A DNA stretch of 64,000 bases from Macrostomum lignano (lineage: Eukaryota). The stretch spans positions 1 through 64,000 of the forward strand of contig NIVC01003790.1 in the NCBI GenBank assembly GCA_002269645.1. Direction: 5' to 3'. Positions 35,633-64,000 of the stretch are shown here, piece after piece. Position numbers and translations under genes: made by a program. The notes below the pieces were generated by a model, which worked only from the letters and a program-made list of their open reading frames with translations, made no database searches and was not told the DNA's origin. Numbering within the stretch: position 1 is the first letter of the stretch; every line of letters begins with the position of its first letter.

Positions 35633-36613
35633 TGTAACGTTTGGTTGTCTCTTGGTTGTCTCGAGGTGGCCTGGCAGGTCTTTGTATCCCACCGCTGCCA
35701 CCAGTGAAGTACTTCTCCTTCTCGGGTTCTCGAAGATGTTCCTGAAAATGGAACCCGCTGCTCCTGAAGAAGCTAGATAGCACCGCAGTACTACCTATCG
35801 ATTTGCCTGAAAATGAAACTAAAACGTGCCGTTACTTGGTAGGGTTGCTGCCACCTTGGTGTGCGGACTCGACGCGTCGGCAGAGTTGTCTATCCGTCAC
35901 CTGAAAGAAAATTAACAAAGTCGCTCGGAGCAAAGGCAAATCTGAAAAATGTCTCGACAGTCGATCGTCTTAGTAAATGCTGCTCGAACCTGAAAACCTG
36001 TAAAACCTGAAATGAGAGAGGAGAGCTCGGAGGCAGAGGCTTCACGAGTTAGCCACAATGCTCCGCGAGACGACGCCGTCTGGAGAAAAATGGCTCGCAG
36101 ATGCTCCGTATTTATAGCCGAGCGGACCCCCAAAAGTCACGTGAGTTTCATGCGGTGAGCGCGTGAAACTTCCTTATTTGGGCATTGGAATCATGCGAAC
36201 GACGCGTGATCCAAGGCCAACTTCCAAATAAGGCAAGCCTGTCACGCAGCAGTGGCGTGACTCAAGGTCAGTGGCCACGCACAGTGTGCGTGCACAGTCA
36301 CGTGCTTAGTCTGTGCTAAAAATAGAAACGTGGGCGGATGAGTCATCCTGTTTACTCCCTCTAGGCAGCCCTTACACTCCGCGCAGGTGATGAGTCATCC
36401 TGCTACGCCTCCTCAGCGCGAGTGGGAAGACATTGAGTGTGGCTGCCCGCGCCCGCTCAGGCGATGAGTCATCGGGCAGTAAACACTTAGGCCCAGCACA
36501 GGGTATCTCTCTCACTAGATCAGGTGGACTGAGCCACTGTGCAGCGGATCACAGCGCCCTTAGGGAAAGCTAGTGAATGCTGCTGAATAGCCAGTTAGCA
36601 GCCAGTCACTACA
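35633..36613 (-). repeat. 3' LTR of the Gypsy element
   Basis: Direct repeat of 45489-46469 (offset 9856; the ORF track gives identical peptides at 35912 and 45768). Confidence 0.97.
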
Positions 36614-37133
36614 CTCTCCCCGTCCAAATTAAATTGCAGCAGCGGAACGATGATTCAATTTATTTGAAAAGAAAATCGGCTCTAACAAGGCCACTTGAGT
36701 ATTTATTGCTACTAAAGAAGAAAATCAATGCGCGCCAGTCAAAAAGATGGTGTACCACTGCGAAAAAGGCAACGTGAACTACATGTCATATTAATTGCGG
36801 AATAAAATGTTGATTACATGAGACAGTTTTATAGATTAGGTTGCATAGTTGTAATAATGTGAGATATTTTAATTTTGAGATTTTTGAAAGGAAGATTTCC
36901 TGATTATTGATTTATAGATTATTTAATAAAGTATAAATGTTGTCATGTAATTTAAAGTTTTGTCGCATATAAACTACAGATGATGTCAACAGTTTAACTT
37001 GTTTGATGGTGTTTTTAATGAAAGGTATTGATTTGAGCAAAATGACTTTTGAGTAATAAAGACAACCTTGAGCTTGCGGAAATAACGTTTCACTAATAAC
37101 GAGTTGATGAATTATTGGCCAAAAGGGATGAAG

Positions 37134-39145
37134 TCAAAAACGAACGAACTTATTAAAACCGGCCGGCACGTCAGCGGCGAGGCCCAAAAAGAACAGTAGT
37201 TTCAATATGGCCAGTTCTAACGATGAAGCGTGCGGCGGATGAGGCGGAAGAGCAGCGGCCGTTCGACGGGCGACCTCCTTTATGGCCCGCTGCCTCTCGT
37301 CAGGTGAGGCGGCTCGGAAATCCGCTCTGATTCCTTCTGGCCAACTTTGGCAGAGCTGCCCCTTTTGTCCGGCTGATACTAGGAGCTCAGTGAGGATGAT
37401 GATGGCCTTCTCGGTGATGGAGCTCGGGCGATCGCTCTGCGTTTCTGCATCCACTAGCTGCGGTCGAGCCCGGATAGCAGCGCTAATCGCCTCCGCGAGT
37501 TCGGTCCGGCTGAATAGGCGGGGCGGCGACGGCACCGGTGACGGTCGGCGGAATCGAGGGGTCGACGGCGTGGGCGGCGTTGGGACCTCGTCCAGATTGA
37601 CGACGTCGGGTTGCGGCGGTGGTGTCAATACACCCAAATAGTGCCCTGGCGGTGGCGAGAGTGACGGAGGCGGCGTGTGCAGCACATCCTCCCTTGGATT
37701 CAGAAGATCCGGCGGATGCTCATTCGGCGAGACCTGCTTTCCCACGACGTCCTGGATAGGAGGCAGCAGATCTTCACCGGACTCTTCCTGCAGGGAGCTA
37801 CTCAGGCTACCAAGCAAGTCGAGCAGTTCTCCGTCAGGCGCTTGAGCCTCACCCGATTGCTGCGGATTAGGAGTGCCTTGCACTGGCCGGCTGGGCGCTC
37901 CTCCCTGATGGTCGGCGGTAGCTGGAAGTCGGGCATCGAATGGACTAGCTAGGGCCGGATTTAATCTACGGCGAATGACCTCCGCCCTTTCGTTGGCAAC
38001 CGCGAGACGATCCTCCAACGATGAGGGCTGCAGCGGAGCGAGTCGGCGTACCTCGATCCGAGGCTCCTGTCTGCGCTGATCGTCCCAACGACTGCGGCGC
38101 CTATGCGTCGTGTCCTGGGCCGGCGTCGGTAGGGCTTGCGTTCGGCGAAGCGGCAGGGCAGGCCGCGTGCGCTTCCGGCCACTAGCTGGTGAGGGCGTCC
38201 AGTGAGAACACCTCAGTTTTCCAAGCTGAAATTTGCGCCATTGAGCAGTGTGCCCAGCAACTGTTTCAGGCGAACATTAATAATTTTGACATTAATTTCT
38301 ACACTGATAGCCAAGCTGCTATTAAGGCCTTAACCACTGAGAATATCTCCGCTGCTACAGTATCTCAATGCCACCGCAGTGTGCAATCTCTCTCAGTCCT
38401 TAACAGGATTAGAATTATCTGGACACCTGGTCACAGCAACATCCTGGGCAACGAGCTCGCGGACTCTCTCGCCAAGGAGGGCAGCAACCCAGACGGCAAC
38501 CACCGTCTGATGAGGCTACCCACCCCCAGGTCGCAAGTCACCCGCCATATCAACAGGTGGCTCCATCAGCAGCACCAGCTCCACTGGAACAGCTGCACCG
38601 AGTACAGGCAGAGCCGCTCTGCCATGCCTAACCTGAACAGGAAAGTCTCTGATTATCTGATTTCGCTTAACAGAACCGACCTCAGGGAGATGTGCATGGT
38701 CCTAACCGGCCACGGATTCTTCCAGAGACATATATCGTTGCAAACCGGTTGCCCTCCCACCTGTCCCTTCTGTGGCATAGGAGAGGAGACCGCGGAGCAT
38801 CACGTCACCTTCTGCCCTTACTTCAACAAGGCGCGGCACAAATACCTCGGCCACCCCCAGCGGATGGACGAGCTGACCACCGCGGACAATATCCGAGACC
38901 TCCGCGCCTTCGTCCGGGACTCCGGCCGGATGAGGGTCGCCGATGCCTCCACTGCGGACCTGCCGACTACTGGCGGGGACTGGGCGCACCCCCAAGGCTA
39001 ATCCTTGTGCTCTTTTACCTTGGGGTTGCGATAGGGGCCTCGCGGCCTATTCGCGGCGCCTGCGCCCCCCGTCAGTAGTAGTAGTAGTAGAGGGCGTCCT
39101 AGAAGGCTCGCGGTCGCGCCTCTTCCGGTTTTCTTTACCCGTCAT
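37134..39145 (-). CDS. Gypsy ORF3 (non-env, 370 aa when reconstructed), interrupted by the LINE insertion
   Basis: Joining 38200 to 39100 gives one stop-free frame from ATG 39145 ([29 protein letters not shown]...) to the stop at 37134; 1113 nt. Confidence 0.8.
38201..39089 (+). mobile_element. 5'-truncated non-LTR retrotransposon (RNase H + CCHC end of ORF2; I/Loa/R1-type) nested antisense in the Gypsy element
   Basis: [28 protein letters not shown] (LINE-type RNase H lacking the first Asp motif), LTGH and CPFCG...EHHVTFCP, stop at 39001. (AGT)n tail at 39074-39089. 10-bp TSD GAGGGCGTCC at 38191-38200 and 39090-39099. Confidence 0.9.
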
Positions 39146-39151
39146 GCTGCT

Positions 39152-42100
39152 TTAATGTTGCTTTACAGCGCTGGAACAGGCACGAGGCCGGCGAAAAAGG
39201 TTGATTAACCGGCTCAAGTAGGACTTTGACTTTGGTTTAAGAACCAAGCGGTCAGGTTCCTTTCGAGCCCTAACTGGCCTGTCATTGACGGCCCATTCGA
39301 CTTGACTAGTTGATGGCAAATTGGCCGACAAAACATGACTATTATTTGGCAAATTGGCCGACATAACATGACTATTACATTGATTATTCCTATCAGAGTC
39401 TAGGTTAAACCTATCGCTAATTTCAATTTCAGGTCGCCTCTGCGTTTCAACTGTAGGAGCGGATGGAGCGTCGCAAGAATCATACGGCAGTGACTCAAGC
39501 TCAACTCTATTCTCCATAACTTCAGGTTCCTGGATGCGGACTTCGGTTGGACGCGCGCCTGGCTGAGCAGCTGATCGGAGTCGCCAGCGATAGGCGGGTC
39601 TCGTGTCCAGGTCGTCTTCTTCGTCAGAGTCCTCAGAGATGGCGGGGAGTGTCGCAGCTCCGGCGTCAGCCTGTCGAACTCGGCGTTGCTTCTTCGGCTC
39701 AGCTGGCCCTTCGAGATCTGCAATTGGATAATCTGAAGTGGGCACAAGGAGGAGGTTCCGGCGATGAACTACCATCTCGTCCGGTCGTTCTCGAGGGTGT
39801 CGAACTTTCCGTCGAATCTTGTAGACGACCTCTCCTTTGCTTTCCACCACTTCGTACAACGATCTCCTTGGCCTGTGAAATTTTGCTGCTTCGTCGTCGT
39901 GTAGGACCGGGTTGTTCAAGAAGACGAGATCTCCCGGCTGTAGCTTCTTAGCTGCTGGTCGGTTCTCGTAGTGCTCGTCTCGCGCTTGCTGATGCAGGCC
40001 TAGCCGTTCCTTGGCGAGGTCCGTGGCGTGCTTGAGGCGTTGGTGAAACTCTGCGACGTAATCAGGCAGGTTAGCGTACTCCGGGAGTAGCTTCAATGAG
40101 TTGTCGAGAGGCATCCTGTATTCTCGGCCATAGACTAAGAAGTAAGGCGTATAGCCTGTGACTGGATGAACGCTGGATCGAAGAGCAATCATGCACGCTG
40201 GCAGAAATGTGTCCCAATCGCGATGATCGTGCTCGAGGAGACATGTCAGAATGCTCTTGATCTGCTTGTTCAGATTTTCTACCAGTCCGTTGGATGCTGG
40301 GTTGTACGGCGTCGTTGTCGTGTGCCTGATCGCGTAGAGATCACAGAACTTCTTGAAGGCGTTTCCTGTAAAGTTCGTGCCTTGGTCCGTGTGAATCCAA
40401 GCTGGAACTCCGTATTCTGGAATAAATCGGTCCTGTAGTAATCGTATAACGGTTTTAGCTTTCTGATTTCTCATCGGATAAGCTATCGGAAACTTTGATG
40501 TCGCACAGCAGAGTGTCAGGATGTATCGATGACCTCCTTTGGACGGTTGCGCAATCGGTCCGATCACATCCATGTGAAGTCTTCCAAAAACTTCGCAGAC
40601 TGGAAAACTCTGGACTGGCACTTGCTGTTTTCGTCGTGACTTGCTCTCTAGGCAGGTTCGGCATTTGCTGACGTAGGTCTCAATGGCTCGGACTAGACCT
40701 GTTCGCCAGAATCTTTCGCGCACACGTTGGGCGGTCTTTCGCTGTCCTTGGTGTCCTGCTAAAGGCGAATTGTGGAGCTCGTTAAAAACTTCGTTGTCGA
40801 GAGCTACTGGTAAGACAATCTTCGGTGGAGTGTCTTTTTCCGTCATGTTGATCATGAGTAGATCTCGCTCGAGGAATAGTAACTCGTAGTATCCAAGCAG
40901 ATTCCGTTGCTCTCTGCTAAGTCGTAATCGATCGTCAAACGCTGGTTTCGGTTGATTCTCCTTGATCAACTTGTAAACGTAGCCAATAGCTGGGTCATCC
41001 TGTTGAGCTTTGATGAGCTTGTCGCGCGGCAATGGCGGCTTCAGATGATCCGTAAGCAATGCTCGGCAGCGCGGCAGACTTTGAGAAGTTGCGAGCTGGG
41101 GAGATGCTTCAGCTGTACGTGCTCTGTCTTCCTCGTATGCAGACTTCGTCACCTCTGCATAGGAACGCGTCGGTTTCGGCGTAGGACGAAGGCGCGTCAT
41201 GGCGCAAGACATATCGTCCACGCGTTGATAATGGGTGGTCGGCTGCAGGCTCATGGAAGAGCAACGAGACGGCTCGACCTGCTGAGTCTGTCGGCTCATG
41301 GAAGAGCAGCGGGACTCCTCAGCGGTAAATTTTCGACCGAGATCTGAACAGTGGCGCTCGACTGGGAGGGCTGCTGGAGCGGTGGCCTCCGAATCTTCGT
41401 CCAAGTCAGTCTCCAAACTCTGTAGGTAGACCTGATGGCTGTCGTTGGAGAGGGCTGAGGGTACAGTGGCCTCTTGAACTTCATCCAGATTGGTCTCCTT
41501 GAAGTGACGGCGAGCGTGGGTGGCTCGGCAGAGGGCTGCTGGTGCGGTGGCCTCTGTGTCTTCATCCAAGCTTGCTGTCTCCTGGCTTCGACGTGAACAG
41601 TGGAGAACTCGGCAGAGGGCTGCAGGTGCGGTGGCCTCTGGTTCGTTGTCCAAGTCGGTCTCTGCCTCTGGATCGCGATTGTGGGTCTTGATTGAGAAGG
41701 CTGCTGGTGCGGTGGCCTCTGAATCGATGCCCGGATCAGTTTCCTTAATGCGGCGACACTCACGCTGAGTGGTGTCTCCTGTCTCCTCGCGGTGGCAAGC
41801 CAGGACAGCGTCGACGTCTTGGAGTACTCCGTAATCGCATTCTAACGGAAGCGTGTCCGGGCGTCTTGATAGCGCGTCGGCGTTGGTGTGGTCAGTACCC
41901 TTGCGATGGGAGATGGTGAACTGAAATTCGCTGATCCTCTGGACCCATCGACCTAGAATCCCTGTAGATTCAGTCTGACGTAACAGCCAGAGCAAGGCCT
42001 TATGGTCACTTCTTACTTCAAACTTCTTTCCTATTAGGTATTCTCGAAAGTGTCGCATGGCATCGACAATAGCCAGTAGCTCCCGCTTGGTGACCGTGTA

Positions 42101-44100
42101 GCGAACTTCCGGGTCACGGAGCTTGCGACTGAAAAAGGCGATCGGTCGTTCTATTCCATCGGATTGTAGTTGTCCTAGACATGCACCGATTCGGGTGTCG
42201 GATGCGTCGGTATCCAGGATGAACTTGACCTTCGGATCCTCATTGAACTCTGGGAGGGCGAGTACTTCGGTTGAGCATAGCTTGCTCTTCAGAGTCTCAA
42301 AGGCAGTCTGATGCTGCTGCGTCCAATGACGCTGGAATCCTTGCAGGTCCTTGCGTGTCAATGCGTGTAACGGGGCAGCAATGCCCGAGTAATCCTCGAC
42401 GAACTTCTTGTAGTAATTGGCGAGACCAAGAAAGCTTCGTAGTTGACGAACAGTCCGAGGCGTTGGCCAACTGCGTATCTGCTCAATCTTGTCTTCGCTT
42501 GTCCGTAGGCCTTCCGGCGTAATCACGTGGCCTAGATAGTGGAGCTCCTTCTTGAATAAATGGCATTTCTTCGGCTTTAGCTTCAAGTTGGCGGCTATGA
42601 TTCGGTTTAGGACTTGTCGTAGACGGTCTAAGTGATCTTCGAACGTCACTGCGTGTACAACGATGTCGTCCATGTAACCAAGAGCGGCCTGCGGTGCTAG
42701 TCCTTCTAGCAGTTGGTTGATACAACGCTGGAACGATCCGGGGCTGTCGGTGAGTCCCATTGGTAGCACCTTGAAGCAGAATTGTCCACGATCGAGCACA
42801 GAGAAGGCAGTGATGTCCTGGTCTTCCTCACGGAGAGGGATCTGGTAGAAACCTTGTACCAGGTCGAGGCTTGAGTACCACTGCGCTCCTTTGAGTTTGG
42901 CGAAAGTTTCCTGAATGTGCGGGATCGGGTACGGGTGCTTCAGCGTCACATCGTTGATCGCTCTGAAGTCGTGCACAATGCGAATCGTCTTGTCCTTCTT
43001 TGGTACTAGGATCATCGGCGAATTGTAACTGGAGTACGTTGGCCGAATGATGCCTTTCTTCAGCATATCGTCGAGCATCTGATCCAGTTGCGGTCATGGA
43101 TGCGGAGGTATCCGGCGAGGAGGAATCGCGATTGGTGTCGAGTCGGTGAGCACTATCTCATGAGTTACCAGGTGTGTCAATCCGTGGTCCAACGGAGTTA
43201 GGGAGAATGCCTTCTCGCATTCCTTGAGTACTTCTTGAACCTGGTGCTTCTGGTGGCTGTTCAGCTGGTCTCCGACGTCGACCTCGTTGATCCTCGTTTC
43301 TTCTGTCGTTATCACTTGACGGACTTCTGGCTCATTCGACTCGCTGAAGTACTCGAGGTCCTGGGTCTTGAGTGGCGTGGCTACTCCCATTAGCATGTTG
43401 CGACGCAAGTGAACCTCCGTGTCTGATGGGTTGAGTACTTCCATCACTCCTCGACCTTCTGTCATCGTGTGCAGGACCGGGGCTGCGTCTAACTGGTGAT
43501 GCTTCGCTCGCAGTCCTGATTTGAGCGGTTCGATAATCATCGGTGAACCGTAGTTCTGCTGATGACCTTCGGCTAGTTTAATGGCGACGAGGCAGGAACA
43601 TTGAGGCGGCAGAGTGCATTTTTCAGCGACGTACACTCGGCAGGCTTTCAGTTCTCTCCTTGAATAGCGTACCGGAAGTCGGGTGCCTTGTCGGAATGTG
43701 AGCATTCCTTGCTGGAAGTCCAGTCCTTGGCAATGACTCCGCATGAAATCAATTCCTAAAAGATTTTCACAGTCTCCTTCGGCGACGAAGAATTCGGTTT
43801 CCGCGACATAGTCCCCGAATTCAATTGATAGGATAACCTTGGCGGCGAGACTTAACTCGGTCCCGTCGTACATAGCGACTCGGTTAGGATAAGCAGGTGC
43901 GACTATACAACGTGGTGAACGACGCCTAATGGCGGCCCAAGTGGACGCTCCGAGGAAGTTTCTTCTGCTTCCGCTGTCTAGCAGAAAGGCGACATCTCGT
44001 CGAGCCACTCGTCCTGTAATAAATGGGTCGGCGTCACGCGCATGGACAGTATTTACAAAGGAGGCGTCCACGAAACCTCCATCGTCCGTTTCTTCGATTA
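39152..44100 (-). CDS. pol: Gypsy pol polyprotein (protease, RT, RNase H, integrase) with one in-frame TGA at 43094-43096
   Basis: LLDSGS protease; LPMGL / YMDDI RT; LDTDAS...ELLA...SDH...NADALSR RNase H; HNSPLAGH...C..C zinc finger and DVIGP...TDQG...VEN integrase. Confidence 0.95.
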
Positions 44101-44117
44101 CTGACGACTCGGACGAG

Positions 44118-45275
44118 TCAGCTGCCGCGGCTGCGGGCCATACTCTTCCGGGGCGTGTTCGGTGTCGGCTGCATAGCCTGGGCTGGAGCTCGGGGGGCGT
44201 TGCCGTTTACGTCCTCCGGCCGGCCGTTTCCCGTAAACTGCTGAGATGATTGGCGTCTGTACGGACAATCTCTCGCCTTGTGTCCGTCTTGATTACACTC
44301 GTAGCACGTGTAGTGCGGCGGTCGGTTCGCTTGACCGATCACTTGATTGGCTGTGACTTGCTGAGCCAACGTGTTAAGCAGATGCTGCTGCTGCTGCATC
44401 ATTGCGGCTTGTTGCTCAACGACCTTTTCCAACTTCGAGAGGGCGCTGTTGTTGGGCTCCTTTGAGGCTTGTCCCTCCCCGTCCAACATTCTGACCGGGG
44501 GCTCCTTCGAACGATGAGCCAGGTCTTTGGCTAATTCCATCCTCTTCAGTGCTCGCAAGGCTTCGCTGAGTGTCGTAGGTCGGATCCAGAAAAGTTTCTC
44601 GCGGCAGTCTGATGACTTGCGAATCCCGCGCAGGAACTGGTCAATCAGTTCTTGCTCTAGATGGCGAGGCTCGAGCCAAGGGAAGGCTTGCTCTCCTAGC
44701 TCCTGCAGAGCATCGGCGTAATCTTCCGTTGATTCGTTCTTGCGCTGGCTGCGACCTCTGAATTCCTCTCGATATTCGTCTGGTCCTGAGAGTCGTGCGA
44801 ATCTCTCTATTAGCCGTTGCTGAAGCTGTCGATAGCTGATGCGGTCGGGCAGCCTCATGCGAAGTACCGCAGCGTAGGCCGAATTTAGGTCTAAATTCGC
44901 CAGCAATTGGGCCTTCTTGTCGTCTTCATCCTGTAGATCTTCTGCCTCGCATCGTAGGTCGAAAGCCTTTAGCCAAACGCGGATGTCCTGCGATGGCGTA
45001 TAGCTCTTCATCTTGACTTGCTTCTTAGGCTGTAGATCGAGCTGACGTTGCATGGCCTGCAGCATCCTGCGGATCATGTCCGGGTTGGTGTCACGTCCGA
45101 GGTTGTTGAGTCCTGCAAATGGATCTTCCTCCTCCTCTCTTGAGTCGTCTCTAAAATTAAATCTTAAACCACATGGTATGGGCGAACCTGCAGCAGCTGC
45201 GGCGGAGTTTCCGTTGTCCTGACGCGTGTGCTGCTGATCACCGATGAGATCTTCTCGATCACTGTCGTGAGACAT
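44118..45275 (-). CDS. gag: Gypsy gag with CCHC zinc knuckle
   Basis: 385 aa ORF; capsid-like WL..F / QF..G motifs; CYECNQDGHKARDC. Confidence 0.93.
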   Translation of the reverse strand: MSHDSDREDLIGDQQHTRQDNGNSAAAAAGSPIPCGLRFNFRDDSREEEEDPFAGLNNLGRDTNPDMIRRMLQAMQRQLDLQPKKQVKMKSYTPSQDIRVWLKAFDLRCEAEDLQDEDDKKAQLLANLDLNSAYAAVLRMRLPDRISYRQLQQRLIERFARLSGPDEYREEFRGRSQRKNESTEDYADALQELGEQAFPWLEPRHLEQELIDQFLRGIRKSSDCREKLFWIRPTTLSEALRALKRMELAKDLAHRSKEPPVRMLDGEGQASKEPNNSALSKLEKVVEQQAAMMQQQQHLLNTLAQQVTANQVIGQANRPPHYTCYECNQDGHKARDCPYRRQSSQQFTGNGRPEDVNGNAPRAPAQAMQPTPNTPRKSMARSRGS

Positions 45276-45488
45276 CTTGATGCTGACTTAGTCGTGGTAG
45301 GCGTGACTGATGACGTGTCCGAAAGGGTGATAGTTGAGTGGCGTTGACGTCGATTCGGTGACGTTCTCCTGCTTGCTTGTTGTATCCCGTATCTCGGATC
45401 CTTTGTCTCGAATCTCGAATCCTTTGTCTCGAATCTCGAATCTCAAATCCTTTGTCTCGAATCTCGAATCTCACCGCTGTTCCACCAG

Positions 45489-46469
45489 TGTAACGTTTGG
45501 TTGTCTCTTGGTTGTCTCGAGGTGGCCTGGCAGGTCTTTGTATCCCACCGCTGCCACCAGTGAAGTACTTCTCCTTCTCGGGTTCTCGAAGATGTTCCTG
45601 AAAATGGAACCCGCTGCTCCTGAAGAAGCTAGATAGCACCGCAGTACTACCTATCGATTTGCCTGAAAATGAAACTAAAACGTGCCGTTACTTGGTAGGG
45701 TTGCTGCCACCTTGGTGTGCGGACTCGACGCGTCGGCAGAGTTGTCTATCCGTCACCTGAAAGAAAATTAACAAAGTCGCTCGGAGCAAAGGCAAATCTG
45801 AAAAATGTCTCGACAGTCGATCGTCTTAGTAAATGCTGCTCGAACCTGAAAACCTGTAAAACCTGAAATGAGAGAGGAGAGCTCGGAGGCAGAGGCTTCA
45901 CGAGTTAGCCACAATGCTCCGCGAGACGACGCCGTCTGGAGAAAAATGGCTCGCAGATGCTCCGTATTTATAGCCGAGCGGACCCCCAAAAGTCACGTGA
46001 GTTTCATGCGGTGAGCGCGTGAAACTTCCTTATTTGGGCATTGGAATCATGCGAACGACGCGTGATCCAAGGCCAACTTCCAAATAAGGCAAGCCTGTCA
46101 CGCAGCAGTGGCGTGACTCAAGGTCAGTGGCCACGCACAGTGTGCGTGCACAGTCACGTGCTTAGTCTGTGCTAAAAATAGAAACGTGGGCGGATGAGTC
46201 ATCCTGTTTACTCCCTCTAGGCAGCCCTTACACTCCGCGCAGGTGATGAGTCATCCTGCTACGCCTCCTCAGCGCGAGTGGGAAGACATTGAGTGTGGCT
46301 GCCCGCGCCCGCTCAGGCGATGAGTCATCGGGCAGTAAACACTTAGGCCCAGCACAGGGTATCTCTCTCACTAGATCAGGTGGACTGAGCCACTGTGCAG
46401 CGGATCACAGCGCCCTTAGGGAAAGCTAGTGAATGCTGCTGAATAGCCAGTTAGCAGCCAGTCACTACA
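45489..46469 (-). repeat. 5' LTR of the Gypsy element
   Basis: Followed on the - strand by C + TGGTGG PBS; TATAAA at 45967-45972 (-). Confidence 0.97.
45967..46329 (-). promoter_or_regulatory. LTR U3 promoter: TATA box, three palindromic GATGAGTCATC AP-1-type sites, CACGTG E-boxes
   Basis: GATGAGTCATC at 46193-46203, 46245-46255 and 46319-46329 (and 9856 nt earlier in the 3' LTR); TATAAA 45967-45972 on the - strand. Motif match only. Confidence 0.6.
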
Positions 46470-59319: not shown

Positions 59320-59384
59320 TCTTCAACGGGTTGCCGGATTAACATTGAGCTCGGTGTTGATTGAGACTGCCGGACCGTACACCC

Positions 59385-60108
59385 GGATCTGTGAGAATAG
59401 CGGTATCCCAGCAACTGAGGATCTGGGAGAATAGCGCTATCCCAGCAACTGAGGATCTGGGAGAATAGCGGTATCCCAGCAACTGAGGATCTGGGAGAAT
59501 AGCGGTATCCCAGCAACTGAGGATCTGGGAGAATAGCGGTATCCCAGCAACTGAGGATCTGGGAGAATAGCGGTATCCCAGCAACTGAGGATCTGGGAGA
59601 ATAGCGGTATCCCAGCAACTGAGGATCTGGGAGAATAGCGCTATCCCAGCAACTGAGGATCTGGGAGAATAGCGCTATCCCAGCAACTGAGGATCTGGGA
59701 GAATAGCGGTATCCCAGCAACTGAGGATCTGGGAGAATAGCGGTATCCCAGCAACTGAGGATCTGGGAGAATAGCGGTATCCCAGCAACTGAGGATCTGG
59801 GAGAATAGCGGTATCCCAGCAACTGAGGATCTGGGAGAATAGCGGTATCCCAGCAACTGAGGATCTGGGAGAATAGCGGTATCCCAGCAACTGAGGATCT
59901 GGGAGAATAGCGCTATCCCAGCAACTGAGGATCTGGGAGAATAGCGGTATCCCAGCAACTGAGGATCTGGGAGAATAGCGGTATCCCAGCAACTGAGGAT
60001 CTGGGAGAATAGCGGTATCCCAGCAACTGAGGATCTGGGAGAATAGCGGTATCCCAGCAACTGAGGATCTGGGAGAATAGCGGTATCCCAGCAACTGAGG
60101 ATCTGGGA
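59385..60108. repeat. 34-bp minisatellite GAGAATAGCGGTATCCCAGCAACTGAGGATCTGG
   Basis: About 21 near-identical units. Confidence 0.95.
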
Positions 60109-60729
60109 GGGTGGCGGTGGGTGGCCATTCTTTGATGCCTTTTTTCAATCTAATCTTGCTAAAGTGAAATTTTATAACCAGTTAATTACCTGGAATTTTA
60201 TAATTACAGTTGGAATCTGTGTTGCTGTCGGACTCATCCAGCCTAGTTATCTAGATGGATCAAGGATTTCTCTTGCCCAGCCCCTCTGCCCAATCCCCGT
60301 CAATTTTTTTTCCATTAATCTCTCAGTTTCTAGAATAAAATCTTAAGAAGTCCGCAGAAATGAATCCGCTGGACACACACAGAGGGGTCTCACGCACGCT
60401 GTCCTCACCTTTTAGCTTAATTCCTGGCTAATCTCCGGCCTTTGCGGACCCGCTATTTCTGGGGGGGGGGGCTGTCCTCGTAGCCTTTGACTTTTAATTA
60501 ACTCCCGGGCTCATCAACGAGTCAGTTTTGGGATGAAGGATTAAACAGATATTAATTTGCCGAATGTCTTAATTATTCAGTATTTTCCAACTTTAATCTG
60601 CTTTGTTTACAGATCAACTTGTTTTGGCTTAGTTGTATTCTTTTAGGTCCCACTTATTGACTAGATATGTATATGCCATTTTTCATTTTCAATCTTTTAT
60701 TAGTTGGTGCCATTCTGAATGAGGTAGTA

Positions 60730-62152
60730 CCATTTTGTATCTTAGATAAGGAAGAGCCATTTTGTATCTTAGATAAGGAAGAGCCATTTTGTATCTTAGA
60801 TAAGGAAGAGCCATTTTGTATCTTGGATAAGGAAGTGCCATTTTGTATCTTAGATAAGGAAGTGCCATTTTGTATCTTGGATAAGGAAGTGCCATTTTGT
60901 ATCTTAGATAAGGAAGAGCCATTTTGTATCTTAGATAAGGAAGAGCCATTTTGTATCTTAGATAAGGAAGTGCCATTTTGTATCTTAGATAAGGAAGAGC
61001 CATTTTGTATCTTAGATAAGGAAGAGCCATTTTGTATCTTAGATAAGGGAAGTGCCATTCTGTATCTTAGATAAGGAAGTGCCATTCTGTATCTTAGATA
61101 AGGAAGTGCCATTTTGTATCTTAGATAAGGAAGTGCCATTCTGTATCTTAGATAAGGAAGAGCCATTTTGTATCTTGGATAACGAGGTGCCATTCTGTAT
61201 CTTGGATAATGAAGTGCCATTTTGTATCTTGGATAATGAAGCGCCATTTTGTATCTTAGATAAGGAAGTGCCATTCTGTATCTTAGATAAGGAAGTACCA
61301 TTCTGTATCTTAGATAAGGAAGTACGATTCTGTATCTTAGATAAGGAAGAGCCATTTTGTATCTTGGATAAGGAAGTGCCATTCTGTATCTTAGATAAGG
61401 AAGTGTCATTTTGTAGCTTAGATAAGGAAGTGTCATTTTGTATCTTAGATAAGGAAGAGCCATTTTGTATCTTAGATAAGGAAGTGTCATTTTGTATCTT
61501 GGATAAGGAAGTGCCATTTTGTATCTTAGATAAGGAAGAGCCATTTTGTATCTTAGATAAGGAAGAGCCATTTTGTATCTTGGATAAGGAAGAGCCATTT
61601 TGTATCTTAGATAAGGAAGAGCCATTTTGTATCTTAGATAAGGAAGAGCCATTTTGTATCTTAGATAAGGAAGAGCCATTTTGTATCTTAGATAAGGAAG
61701 AGCCATTTTGTATCTTGGATAAGGAAGAGCCATTTTGTATCTTGGATAAGGAAGAGCCATTTTGTATCTTAGATAAGGAAGAGCCATTTTGTATCTTAGA
61801 TAAGGAAGAGCCATTTTGTATCTTAGATAAGGAAGAGCCATTTTGTATCTTAGATAAGGAAGAGCCATTTTGTATCTTAGATAAGGAAGAGCCATTTTGT
61901 ATCTTAGATAAGGAAGAGCCATTTTGTATCTTAGATAAGGAAGAGCCATTTTGTATCTTAGATAAGGAAGAGCCATTTTGTATCTTAGATAAGGAAGAGC
62001 CATTTTGTATCTTGGATAAGGAAGAGCCATTTTGTATCTTAGATAAGGAAGAGCCATTTTGTATATTGGATAAGGAAGTGCCATTTTGTATCTTGGATAA
62101 GGAAGTGCCATTTTGTATCTTGGATAAGGAAGTGCCATTTTGTAGCTTGGAT
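60730..62152. repeat. 27-bp minisatellite CCATTTTGTATCTTAGATAAGGAAGAG
   Basis: About 52 units ending about 85 bp upstream of the kinesin ATG. Confidence 0.95.
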
Positions 62153-62237
62153 TAGCAACATAAGCTGGATTTCGCAGAGGTAGCCAGTCCGCACACCGAA
62201 GCCCCCTGCACATGCAGCTCAGCCACCAGACGAGGCG

Positions 62238-62571
62238 ATGAACATTGACGTAATCGGTCGTGTCCGGCCGTCCATCCGAAACGAGGGCCCCTGCACCCTG
62301 GCCATCGGCTCGGACAACCGGGTGTCATCTCGGCCGGGCGGCCAGTCATTCGTGTTCCAGCACCTGTACCAGCAAGGTTCCAGCAATTTAGACGTCTACA
62401 GTCGGCACGTGGAACCGATGGTGGACATTTTCCTGGCTGGCTACAATGTCTGCTTCATGTGCTTCGGCGAGAGCGGCTCGGGAAAGAGCTTCACCTTGGC
62501 TGGCGATTCGTCTATGAAAAATGGCCTGGTGCCTCTGGTGCTGGCCTCTCTGTTTGCCAAGCTGGACCCAG
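62238..62571 (+). CDS. Kinesin motor-domain protein, first coding exon (gene continues downstream)
   Basis: MNIDVIGRVRP (beta-1 IxVxxRxRP), FVFQHLY, GYNVCFMCFGESGSGKSFTL P-loop. Donor CAG|GTGAGA after 62571; in-frame TAG upstream at 62181. Confidence 0.85.
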
Positions 62572-62624
62572 GTGAGACTGCTGAGTCACTGCCAATTCTT
62601 GGTGGGCAATTCTTGATGAGCGAT

Positions 62625-62780
62625 TTATGATGGGCGATTTTTGATAAACGATTTTTTATAGACGCTTCTTGGTGAGCGATTCTCAGTGAGCGATTCTCAG
62701 TGAGCGATTCTCAGTGAGCGATTCTCAGTGAGCGATTCTCAATGAGCGATACTCACTGAGCCATTCTAAATGAGCGATTC
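62625..62780 (+). repeat. 14-bp intronic repeat GTGAGCGATTCTCA
   Basis: Tandem units just after the kinesin donor site. Confidence 0.85.
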
Positions 62781-63294
62781 TCAATGGTCAACTATTCTAT
62801 CTGCAAATACTATGCTTAAATATGTGCTCACCCAGTTCTCTGCTTACAAATGTCTCTAACTATCACATTCATGTAGCAATGCACGTTTAACTTTAATAGA
62901 ATGCTATATTTATTTTTGACAACTGACTAACTTCATTAGTTAGCCCATGCATGCTATAATTGAAACTGAAAAACTAATTTGTCATTTTCAGCCGATATTC
63001 TTCCCGGACGCAGTGAGTAAAGCGATAATTGTCATTTCTATTTATAACACGGTGATGGCCAAAAATCTCTGATGGAAATGGCGTTTTCATTTTTTTAGTT
63101 TACAATAATTTTCTGTCTGATGCGTACCAGCTGGAATGGCACTGCCAATGCGATTGCTAATGCGCCACTGTTTCTGTCTGTGCCATCAATGCCCCACCTG
63201 CCATTGTGTTCCACTTTTCCTCTGCCTGTTAGGTTGCTGCTGTTTTTGTCTCAATTTTATTCTATTTTATATAGTCTGTCCTTGTGTATATCTT

Positions 63295-63800
63295 CTGTCA
63301 CCTTATCTACCTCATCTGTCTCCTTATCTACCTCACGTGTCTCCTTATCTACCTCACCTGTCTCCTTATCTACCTCACCTGTCTCCTTATCTACCTCAAG
63401 TGTCTCCTTATCTACCTCACCTGTCTCCTTATCTACCTCACCTGTCTCCTTATCAACCTCACCTGTCTCCTTATCTACCTCAAGTGTCTCCTTATCTACC
63501 TCACCTGTCTCCTTATCTACCTCACGTGTCTCCTTATCTACCTGAAGTGTCTCCTTATCTACCTCACCTATCTCCTTATCTACCTCACCTGTCTCCTTAT
63601 CTACCTCATCTATCTCCTTATCTACCTCACGTGTCTCCTTATCTACCTCACCTGTCTCCTTATCTACCTCACCTATCTCCTTATCTACCTCACGTGTCTC
63701 CTTATCTACCTCACCTATCTCCTTATCTACCTCACCTATCTCCTTATCTACCTCACCTGTCTCTTTATCTACTTCACAGTTCCCTTATCTACCTTATCTA
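63295..63800 (+). repeat. 21-bp intronic minisatellite TCTCCTTATCTACCTCACCTG
   Basis: Pyrimidine-rich tandem array downstream of kinesin exon 1. Confidence 0.93.
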
Positions 63801-64000
63801 TCTCCTTATTTCCCTCACCTGTCTTCTTAGCTACCTATTCTTCCCTCTTATCTACCTTATGTTTTCTTTCATCTGTAGCAAAATAATTGCGATAGATAAT
63901 CAAAGATTTCCTCAGTACAATACTCAGGCCTTAGTCAAGCCTTAATTGCTGGCTAATAAGTCTCTTAGCACAAAAAAAGGCAATTTCGAATCCTCCTTTG

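Follow-up and report, generated by a model that had tools for sequence, protein, structure and literature searches.

The window analysed here, a 64,000-nucleotide stretch of a Macrostomum lignano contig, carries on its minus strand an element that is a Ty3/Gypsy LTR retrotransposon by its LTRs, its gag and the PR-RT-RH-IN order of its pol. The two LTRs (35633-36613 and 45489-46469) are 981 bp each with 0 mismatches between them, a 4-bp target duplication flanks the element, and Pfam recognised gag, protease, RT, RNase H and integrase. The 5' LTR (45489-46469; TG...CA, with a TATA box) adjoins a primer-binding-site-like TGG sequence at 45470-45487 and is followed by gag (44118-45275; Retrotrans_gag with a zinc knuckle), pol (39152-44206; protease, RT, RNase H and integrase), the interrupted third gene that we call ORF3, an AT-rich 3' UTR with a polypurine tract (36614-37133) that varies with the ORF3 version, and a 3' LTR of the same sequence as the 5' LTR (35633-36613). 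In the gag-pol overlap, in the 44232 region, a GGGAAAC slippery-like heptamer is followed by a GC-rich palindrome, likely a -1 frameshift signal. The window copy of pol also contains an in-frame stop at 43094-43096, so this copy suffered damage soon after it inserted.

Downstream of pol, ORF3 is split in two. Its 5' piece (39090-39145, minus strand) begins with an ATG at 39145 and includes a basic cluster at 39116-39136, and its 3' piece extends to the stop codon (37134-38200, minus strand). Between them, on the opposite strand, lies a 5'-truncated LINE of 889 nt (38201-39089, plus strand) with an RNase H domain (PF00075, E 2e-8) and an (AGT)n tail, bordered on either side by a 10-bp duplication (38191-38200 and 39090-39099). 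All 40 scored genome matches to the insert, from 1025 candidates, were 100% identical, which marks it as a fragment of a young LINE that has lost its 5' part. The initial annotation had proposed that this LINE hides a third ORF of 370 aa, and uninterrupted natural copies of 370-378 aa bear this out. Rather than joining the window pieces, we compared each separately with one such copy (L002): the 5' piece showed 2 differences over 56 bases and the 3' piece 20 over 1067, with an overlap corresponding to the 10-nt duplication. A search of the genome returned 24 matches, the window and 23 other loci. Four of the 23 carried the full-length frame that LINE-free copies had been expected to show (L002 and L003, 370 aa; L006, 376 aa; L007, 378 aa), and the remaining loci were truncated, frameshifted or interrupted. 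The start was also as described, with TAA, 6 nt and an ATG with A at -3 in the window. Nested elements near the pol end or within ORF3 were seen in other copies of the same family (the window family: L017-L020, L059, L064 and L137); two loci carry a Copia element, and three carry a member of the LINE family that interrupts the window copy.

ORF3 is a real gene under purifying selection. Across the six pairs of the four natural copies, dN/dS (Nei-Gojobori) was 0.14-0.33 with bootstrap upper limits of 0.20-0.75, ranging from 0.14-0.21 between divergent versions to 0.33 between close ones. The N-terminal, linker, TP-rich and C-terminal parts each gave values below 1 wherever they could be estimated (one linker comparison was saturated), and positive selection was not seen in any estimable region. 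Values this far from 1 uphold the earlier suggestion of a conserved accessory gene. The protein is also non-env, as had been suggested: it has no N-terminal hydrophobic stretch or signal peptide, only 2 Cys and 0-1 NxS/T glycosylation sites rather than a Cys-rich glycosylated ectodomain, and no Pfam family match. Among the matches listed by the Pfam and fold searches, none to an F-type or gB-type fusion protein was significant. The sequence features, the absent Pfam match and the helix bundle predicted for the C-terminus led us to reject an env or membrane protein.

Within the same copies, silent divergence differed 30-fold between adjacent genes: dS was 1.57-1.69 in ORF3 vs 0.04-0.065 in pol and gag, a gap that is surprising whatever the function of ORF3. 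Identity among copies was 95-99% across most of gag-pol, roughly 60% in the centre of ORF3 and 38% in the first 3' UTR bin. ORF3 fell into at least eight version classes, 60-79% alike, a count that ignores spurious identity values from short overlaps. L006 and L007 were mosaic, being 58-73% alike over the first two-thirds and 99-100% alike from there through the final third and the 3' UTR. Because these divergent versions sit on near-identical gag-pol, and because the LTR pairs were 97.4-100% identical in all six elements examined (four ORF3 classes covered), a single recent backbone is carrying old ORF3 lineages. The depth of the versions may reflect balancing selection; alternatively, one gag-pol may have swept through older families.

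An integrase search of the genome gave 150 scored matches in groups of approximately 95-100, 80-82, 69 and 63-66% identity, from which 80 stretches were fetched; we refer to the 80-82% group as the sister family. A domain homologous to the ORF3 C-terminus was found in 44 of 61 sister-family loci, and C-terminal profiles built separately for the two families matched each other with a probability of 94.8 and an E of 5.5e-8. The sister homologue is far more varied than the integrase. At all 40 junctions that could be located, it continued the Pol (integrase) frame without a stop, and an unbroken frame from the integrase motifs to the domain was present in 23 of the 44 domain-bearing loci; the fused copies retain an acceptor-like site and Met of their own. 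Another 14 of the 61 loci formed a 97-99% identical group without ORF3, and 3 more gave no hit. The integrase region of the ORF3-less group is 98-99% like that of ORF3-bearing copies, and this young subgroup is a candidate free-rider lineage. Its members are L123, L124, L143, L147, L148, L150, L152-L154 and L156-L160. The 69% family showed no more than a weak match, and the 64-66% families also carry a third ORF, for which an HHalign probability of 3% does not establish homology with ORF3. The third ORFs of these last families (L131-L136 and L197-L201) were acidic, 240-290 aa long and mosaic, with a basic RKFRKC-type helix.

Outside the genome, P0004 and P0007 were the only relatives among the searches run. 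A homologue search with the C-terminal part accepted 0 of 1702 candidates. Among 1.84 billion representatives there were two hits, of which P0004 is a true relative and P0005, a repeat protein, was discarded as spurious. With a deeper profile, a single one of 7995 longer candidates was accepted, namely P0007, whose label is that of a hypothetical protein of Macrostomum lignano; none of 7997 shorter candidates was accepted, and the ESM Atlas returned no usable hit.

ORF3 had been described as in frame with pol, which is true of the window but not of the family. The distance from the pol stop to the ORF3 ATG, measurable in 21 of 22 copies, was 2, 4, 5, 6, 8, 11 or 16 nt with one overlap, and the two genes shared a frame in only 2 of the 21, the window and L002. 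A stop separates pol from ORF3 in 20 of these 21 copies, and in the remaining copy ORF3 lies in a different frame. Given the varying gaps and the shared frame in only 2 of 21 copies, we reject read-through into a Pol-ORF3 fusion, one of the expression routes first suggested, for the window family.

A subgenomic RNA, another of those routes, is the one that the sequence favours. A predicted 3' splice acceptor (39171-39200, minus strand), with a branch-like sequence, a pyrimidine tract and CAG, lies 25 nt before the ORF3 ATG within the last pol codons. We scanned 18 starts from families at 64-100% integrase identity, of which 2 were not found and 1 was mismatched, and a Y-AG|C site was present 7-30 nt before the ATG at all 15 correctly located starts, in differing pol phases and, in one family, downstream of the pol stop. 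In the sister family the pyrimidine tract of several acceptors is weak (0.43-0.5), and such sites occur in the background at a rate of 0.05-0.21 per window scanned; within the window family the site lies in near-identical pol, so that its conservation there says little. The acceptor-like site is conserved. Among the rows listed for five contig sets (four guessed to be RNA and one of unknown kind), none joined this site to an exon or a spliced leader, and contigs run unspliced from pol into ORF3; these sets are shallow and may contain DNA. The sense strand is without a strong splice donor (best 3.3 bits, with 5 of 100 shuffles as low), a marginal depletion that was not significant against a synonymous-codon control (P 0.28, with a donor matrix not trained on the host). 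Host introns show canonical donors. As 38.8% of M. lignano genes are reported to be trans-spliced and multi-gene precursors to be common (PMC5730564), a spliced leader could use the ORF3 acceptor. For this expression step only, we consider it unlikely that ORF3 is instead reached by stop-restart reinitiation or an internal promoter. The short stop-start gaps (2-16 nt in the window family and 2-4 nt in the 64-66% families) and the lack of a junction in the contigs would suit such a route, but one family retains the acceptor-like site in noncoding sequence and another retains it without any stop, and if Pol likely arises only from a rare -1 frameshift at the slippery-like site at 44232, little reinitiation would follow. 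The 5' LTR leader (45604-45946) itself contains seven pyrimidine-rich CAG acceptor-like sites; sister-family LTRs mostly have none or one, and L139 has seven.

The basic clusters and Pro-rich linker attributed to the protein were found, with 14-17% Pro. The N-terminus is Arg-rich, Arg and Lys making up 25-26% of the first 110 aa in all three versions counted, and the linker carries 13-15 S/T-P sites. The C-terminus (37137-37418, minus strand) is predicted to form a four-helix domain, which is common to the sister family. A first ORF3 structure model was poor (pLDDT 51.6) and its fold searches were uninformative; a model of the four-helix domain from 31 sequences reached a pLDDT of 86 and a pTM of 0.79. 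A Foldseek search of viral structures gave this model no match at E<=0.001. Its best VIA Z scores, 6.9 and 6.4, were to the FAM86A N-terminal domain (rmsd 3.4, 88-89 aligned), a match that scored level with AppA SCHIC and with cullin repeats and fell below the level that would indicate more than a common helical arrangement.

Several short motifs lie upstream of this domain, all on the minus strand. The Arg-rich RRRSRWD (38079-38102) is a putative UHM-ligand-like motif (ULM) found in the window family only. An acidic LxxLL-type motif at 37812-37826 is followed by a second approximately 23 codons downstream, their exact residues varying. A putative SUMO-interacting-like motif (SIM), VVNLDE (37587-37604), has as its sister-family counterpart VIDLT; SIMs follow a pattern of a hydrophobic core with flanking acidic residues. 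Finally, a putative LC8/DYNLL-binding-like motif, DAETQS (37434-37451), which is of TQT type in the sister family, places a TQ anchor just before the four-helix domain. Across 30 window-family loci, the LC8-like motif was present in 24, the SIM-like motif in 22 and the ULM-like motif with its Trp in 19, with Leu for Trp in 2 and no such motif found in 9; it was absent in 15 of 15 sister-family versions. Read from its residues, RRRSRWD fits the published description of a ULM, namely, within a disordered region, a basic stretch, a Trp and a residue that is either acidic or N/Q; Rev has a ULM of its own (PMC6511859). A host U2AF65 UHM exon and host LC8 were both located in the genome.

The TQT-type LC8 anchor motif has been described (PMC7861614), and exact TQT occurred in 7 of 15 non-redundant sister versions vs 0.98 expected from shuffles. 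The looser [TC]Q[TSV] occurred in 3 of 3 window-family versions (0.50 expected), where the anchor is the variant TQS/TQV, and in 10 of 15 sister versions (3.04 expected). A VIDLT-type motif was present in 9 of 15 sister versions, with a looser (V/I/T)(V/I)NLD in the window family, and the generic SIM pattern in 8 of 15 sister versions vs 4.2 expected, only some 2-3 times over chance. The exact TQT and generic SIM counts are the fair, untuned ones; the strict patterns were drawn up with the sequences already in view, and these share ancestry, so the values from shuffling should not be read as probabilities. Inspection of ORF3 by eye revealed no evident leucine-rich export signal. Readings of the protein as having a BEN domain or a nuclear export signal, considered by eye, were dropped. 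In the window (39145-39130), residues 4-6 of ORF3 read KEN, which we take to be a KEN box, an APC/C degron; it is kept in all window-family versions read and is absent from the sister family.

From these motifs, a nuclear role for ORF3 is plausible. We tentatively propose, as the best of the readings considered though an unsettled one, that ORF3 is a trans-acting, Rev/CERV-like nuclear regulator of the full-length RNA of the element. A short ORF3 message would likely be made through the splice acceptor at the pol end. The Arg-rich N-terminus would then serve in nuclear entry and RNA binding, with ORF3 binding nascent full-length element RNA in trans; the TQ motif would let host LC8 dimerise the adjoining helical domain; the SIM-like motif would bind SUMO-modified chromatin or RNA factors; and, in the window family, the ULM-like motif would compete at 3' splice sites for UHM domains of the U2AF65/SPF45 type. 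In this way ORF3 would shield the element RNA from splicing, retention and SUMO-dependent silencing, keeping it intact and exportable. The element may need such a protein because its acceptor-rich leader would be at risk in a spliced-leader trans-splicing host, where use of the leader's seven acceptor-like sites by trans-splicing would remove the 5' end needed for reverse transcription. Host pressure on the ORF3 protein or RNA would keep many old versions circulating, and template switching would reshuffle them onto the uniform gag-pol.

The ORF3-less sister copies, with their near-identical integrase, would favour action in trans, although the success of that subgroup may mean that the gene is simply dispensable. 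An acceptor-rich leader and the ULM do not go together, L139 having 7 acceptor-like sites yet no ULM. Three further points stand against a Rev-like reading as a whole: the ULM-like motif is missing from the sister family, no export signal is evident and no junction was seen. The LC8- and SIM-type motifs, moreover, would fit a role at chromatin equally well.

Such a role, with ORF3 as a chromatin-level anti-silencing factor or a transcriptional activator on the LTR, seems to us somewhat unlikely. An LC8-dimerised, SUMO-binding protein with LxxLL acidic helices would compete with small-RNA-guided heterochromatin machinery or recruit co-activators. The motifs common to both families are the LC8-like and SIM-like ones, not the ULM, and ORF3 has two acidic LxxLL-type motifs. 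Deep versions and free-riding ORF3-less copies would also be in line with an arms race over a shared product; no ORF3 region, however, has dN/dS >1, the protein has no significant match to a DNA-binding or chromatin-reader fold, and its N-terminus is Arg/RS-rich, as in RNA-binding proteins. Against this reading, too, Panoramix and Sov are fly proteins. Panoramix, a disordered nuclear adaptor in Drosophila piRNA silencing, works through TQT motifs, an LxxLL motif and contacts between SUMO and SIMs, and ORF3 resembles it in its TQT/LC8, LxxLL and SUMO-type motifs (PMC7861614; 10.1101/2021.07.27.453956). The likeness is one of short motifs only, and unlike Panoramix, which is a host silencing factor, ORF3 is encoded by a transposon. 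A broader scheme, which we think distinctly unlikely to hold in full, would make ORF3 a clade-wide, hitherto undescribed counter-silencing protein that mimics the host co-transcriptional toolkit (LC8 dimerisation, SUMO binding and a one-family U2AF ligand). Spliced-leader trans-splicing would excise it from the genomic RNA as it does the downstream genes of an operon, its versions would form an ancient allelic series that recombines on one uniform gag-pol, and gene-less cheaters would be served by it in trans.

It is improbable that ORF3 is a module of the pre-integration complex, packaged in the particle or fused to integrase, that would bring cDNA to the nucleus via LC8/dynein or steer integration to SUMO-marked chromatin. 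The integrase frame that continues into the sister homologue at 40 of 40 junctions, unbroken in 23 of 44 loci, is what this reading would predict, but the window family interposes a stop (20 of 21) or a change of frame (1 of 21), the fused copies retain their own acceptor-like site and Met, and ORF3-less copies have multiplied recently. It is scarcely credible that ORF3 is an envelope protein or a small fusogen, a fragment captured from a host gene, or a frame open by chance: it occupies the env position and has one hydrophobic 19-mer at 1.8 (Kyte-Doolittle), but that 19-mer is helix 4 of the predicted bundle and the sister homologue peaks at 1.0, the features of the protein given above are not those of env, all 48 genome matches of the C-terminal domain (30 of these read) look like element copies, and dN/dS is far below 1.

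A close parallel to the proposed nuclear RNA regulator is CERV, which is encoded by Cer1, a Gypsy element of C. elegans. CERV is an orphan accessory protein of the nucleus that is made from a spliced message, has a basic NLS and Pro-directed phosphorylation sites, and is required for export of unspliced RNA (PMC10309623). ORF3 is likewise an orphan accessory protein of a Gypsy element, and its role in RNA export is proposed by this analogy. Unlike ORF3, CERV has 517 aa, consists partly of gag exons, and has a Cys loop and a G-protein-like domain (PMC10309623); ORF3 is a single ORF after pol with 2 Cys and one predicted four-helix domain. We compared CERV by description, and no homology between the two is suggested. 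ORF3 is about three times longer than Rev and, unlike it, lacks a clear export signal and a recognised response element and has a ULM-like motif limited to one family. With HIV-1 Rev it shares an Arg-rich stretch with a Trp-centred ULM-type motif, in which basic residues and an acidic residue accompany the Trp (PMC6511859).

Errantivirus env is expressed by splicing, and ORF3 resembles it in lying after pol with a likely acceptor at the pol end; unlike env, it has no signal peptide, cysteine-bridged ectodomain or anchor. Flatworm env elements have been reported as GAG-ENV-POL with a gB-type env (PMC13524379). Non-env third ORFs are already known from rotifer and plant elements and from Cer1 (PMC5408684; PMC7264820; PMC10309623). 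Those of bdelloid rotifer LTR elements encode a GDSL esterase, a DEDDy exonuclease or transmembrane segments (PMC5408684), and plant LTR elements carry sense additional ORFs (PMC7264820). Like these, ORF3 is a non-env gene between pol and the 3' LTR; unlike the rotifer enzymes, it matches no family, and it occurs in separate, Pol-fused and deleted states and in deep allelic versions. What appears new, from the copies compared, is the presence of at least eight deep ORF3 versions on near-identical gag-pol, and the Pol-fused and lost states in the sister family. In the literature searched, we found no account of the ORF3 protein family, of an LC8-plus-SIM retrotransposon accessory protein or of such an allelic series. 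The main text of PMC12801592 contains 0 occurrences of 'ORF', and its supplements and the earlier classification paper that it cites may bear on novelty.

Few LTR-retrotransposon accessory genes have a known job, CERV being one (PMC10309623), and ORF3 offers natural experiments of its own: one backbone bears many old versions, and among close relatives the gene is found separate, fused to Pol or lost. Short motifs in ORF3 point to testable host partners in LC8, SUMO and U2AF-type domains. If the proposed RNA regulation is true, a retrotransposon of a flatworm rich in stem cells would be acting as complex retroviruses do, and the opposing host pathway would be pinpointed; ORF3 may also show an element expressing a downstream gene via spliced-leader trans-splicing.

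Some further features of the element and its surroundings were observed. Between RNase H and integrase (41351-41744), pol contains approximately five 81-84-nt repeats encoding ATAPAAL-type units, the number of which varies among copies. In the U3 of the 5' LTR (46120-46327), four TGA(C/G)TCA sites, elements of the AP-1 type, lie upstream of the TATA box. The PBS-like TGGTGGCAGC occurs one to three times per LTR inside U5 (45580-45545 in the window and the matching place of the 3' LTR), in the window family as well as in sister families (L123, L127, L140 and others), and the LTR looks as if it had grown beyond older primer-binding sites. Just upstream of the element, host-like frames at 46953-47468 and 47906-48388, both on the minus strand, show by eye C-type-lectin/PAN-like Cys patterns, and much of the rest of the window (3400-34900 and 53100-64000) consists largely of many unrelated minisatellite arrays with units of 18-48 nt.
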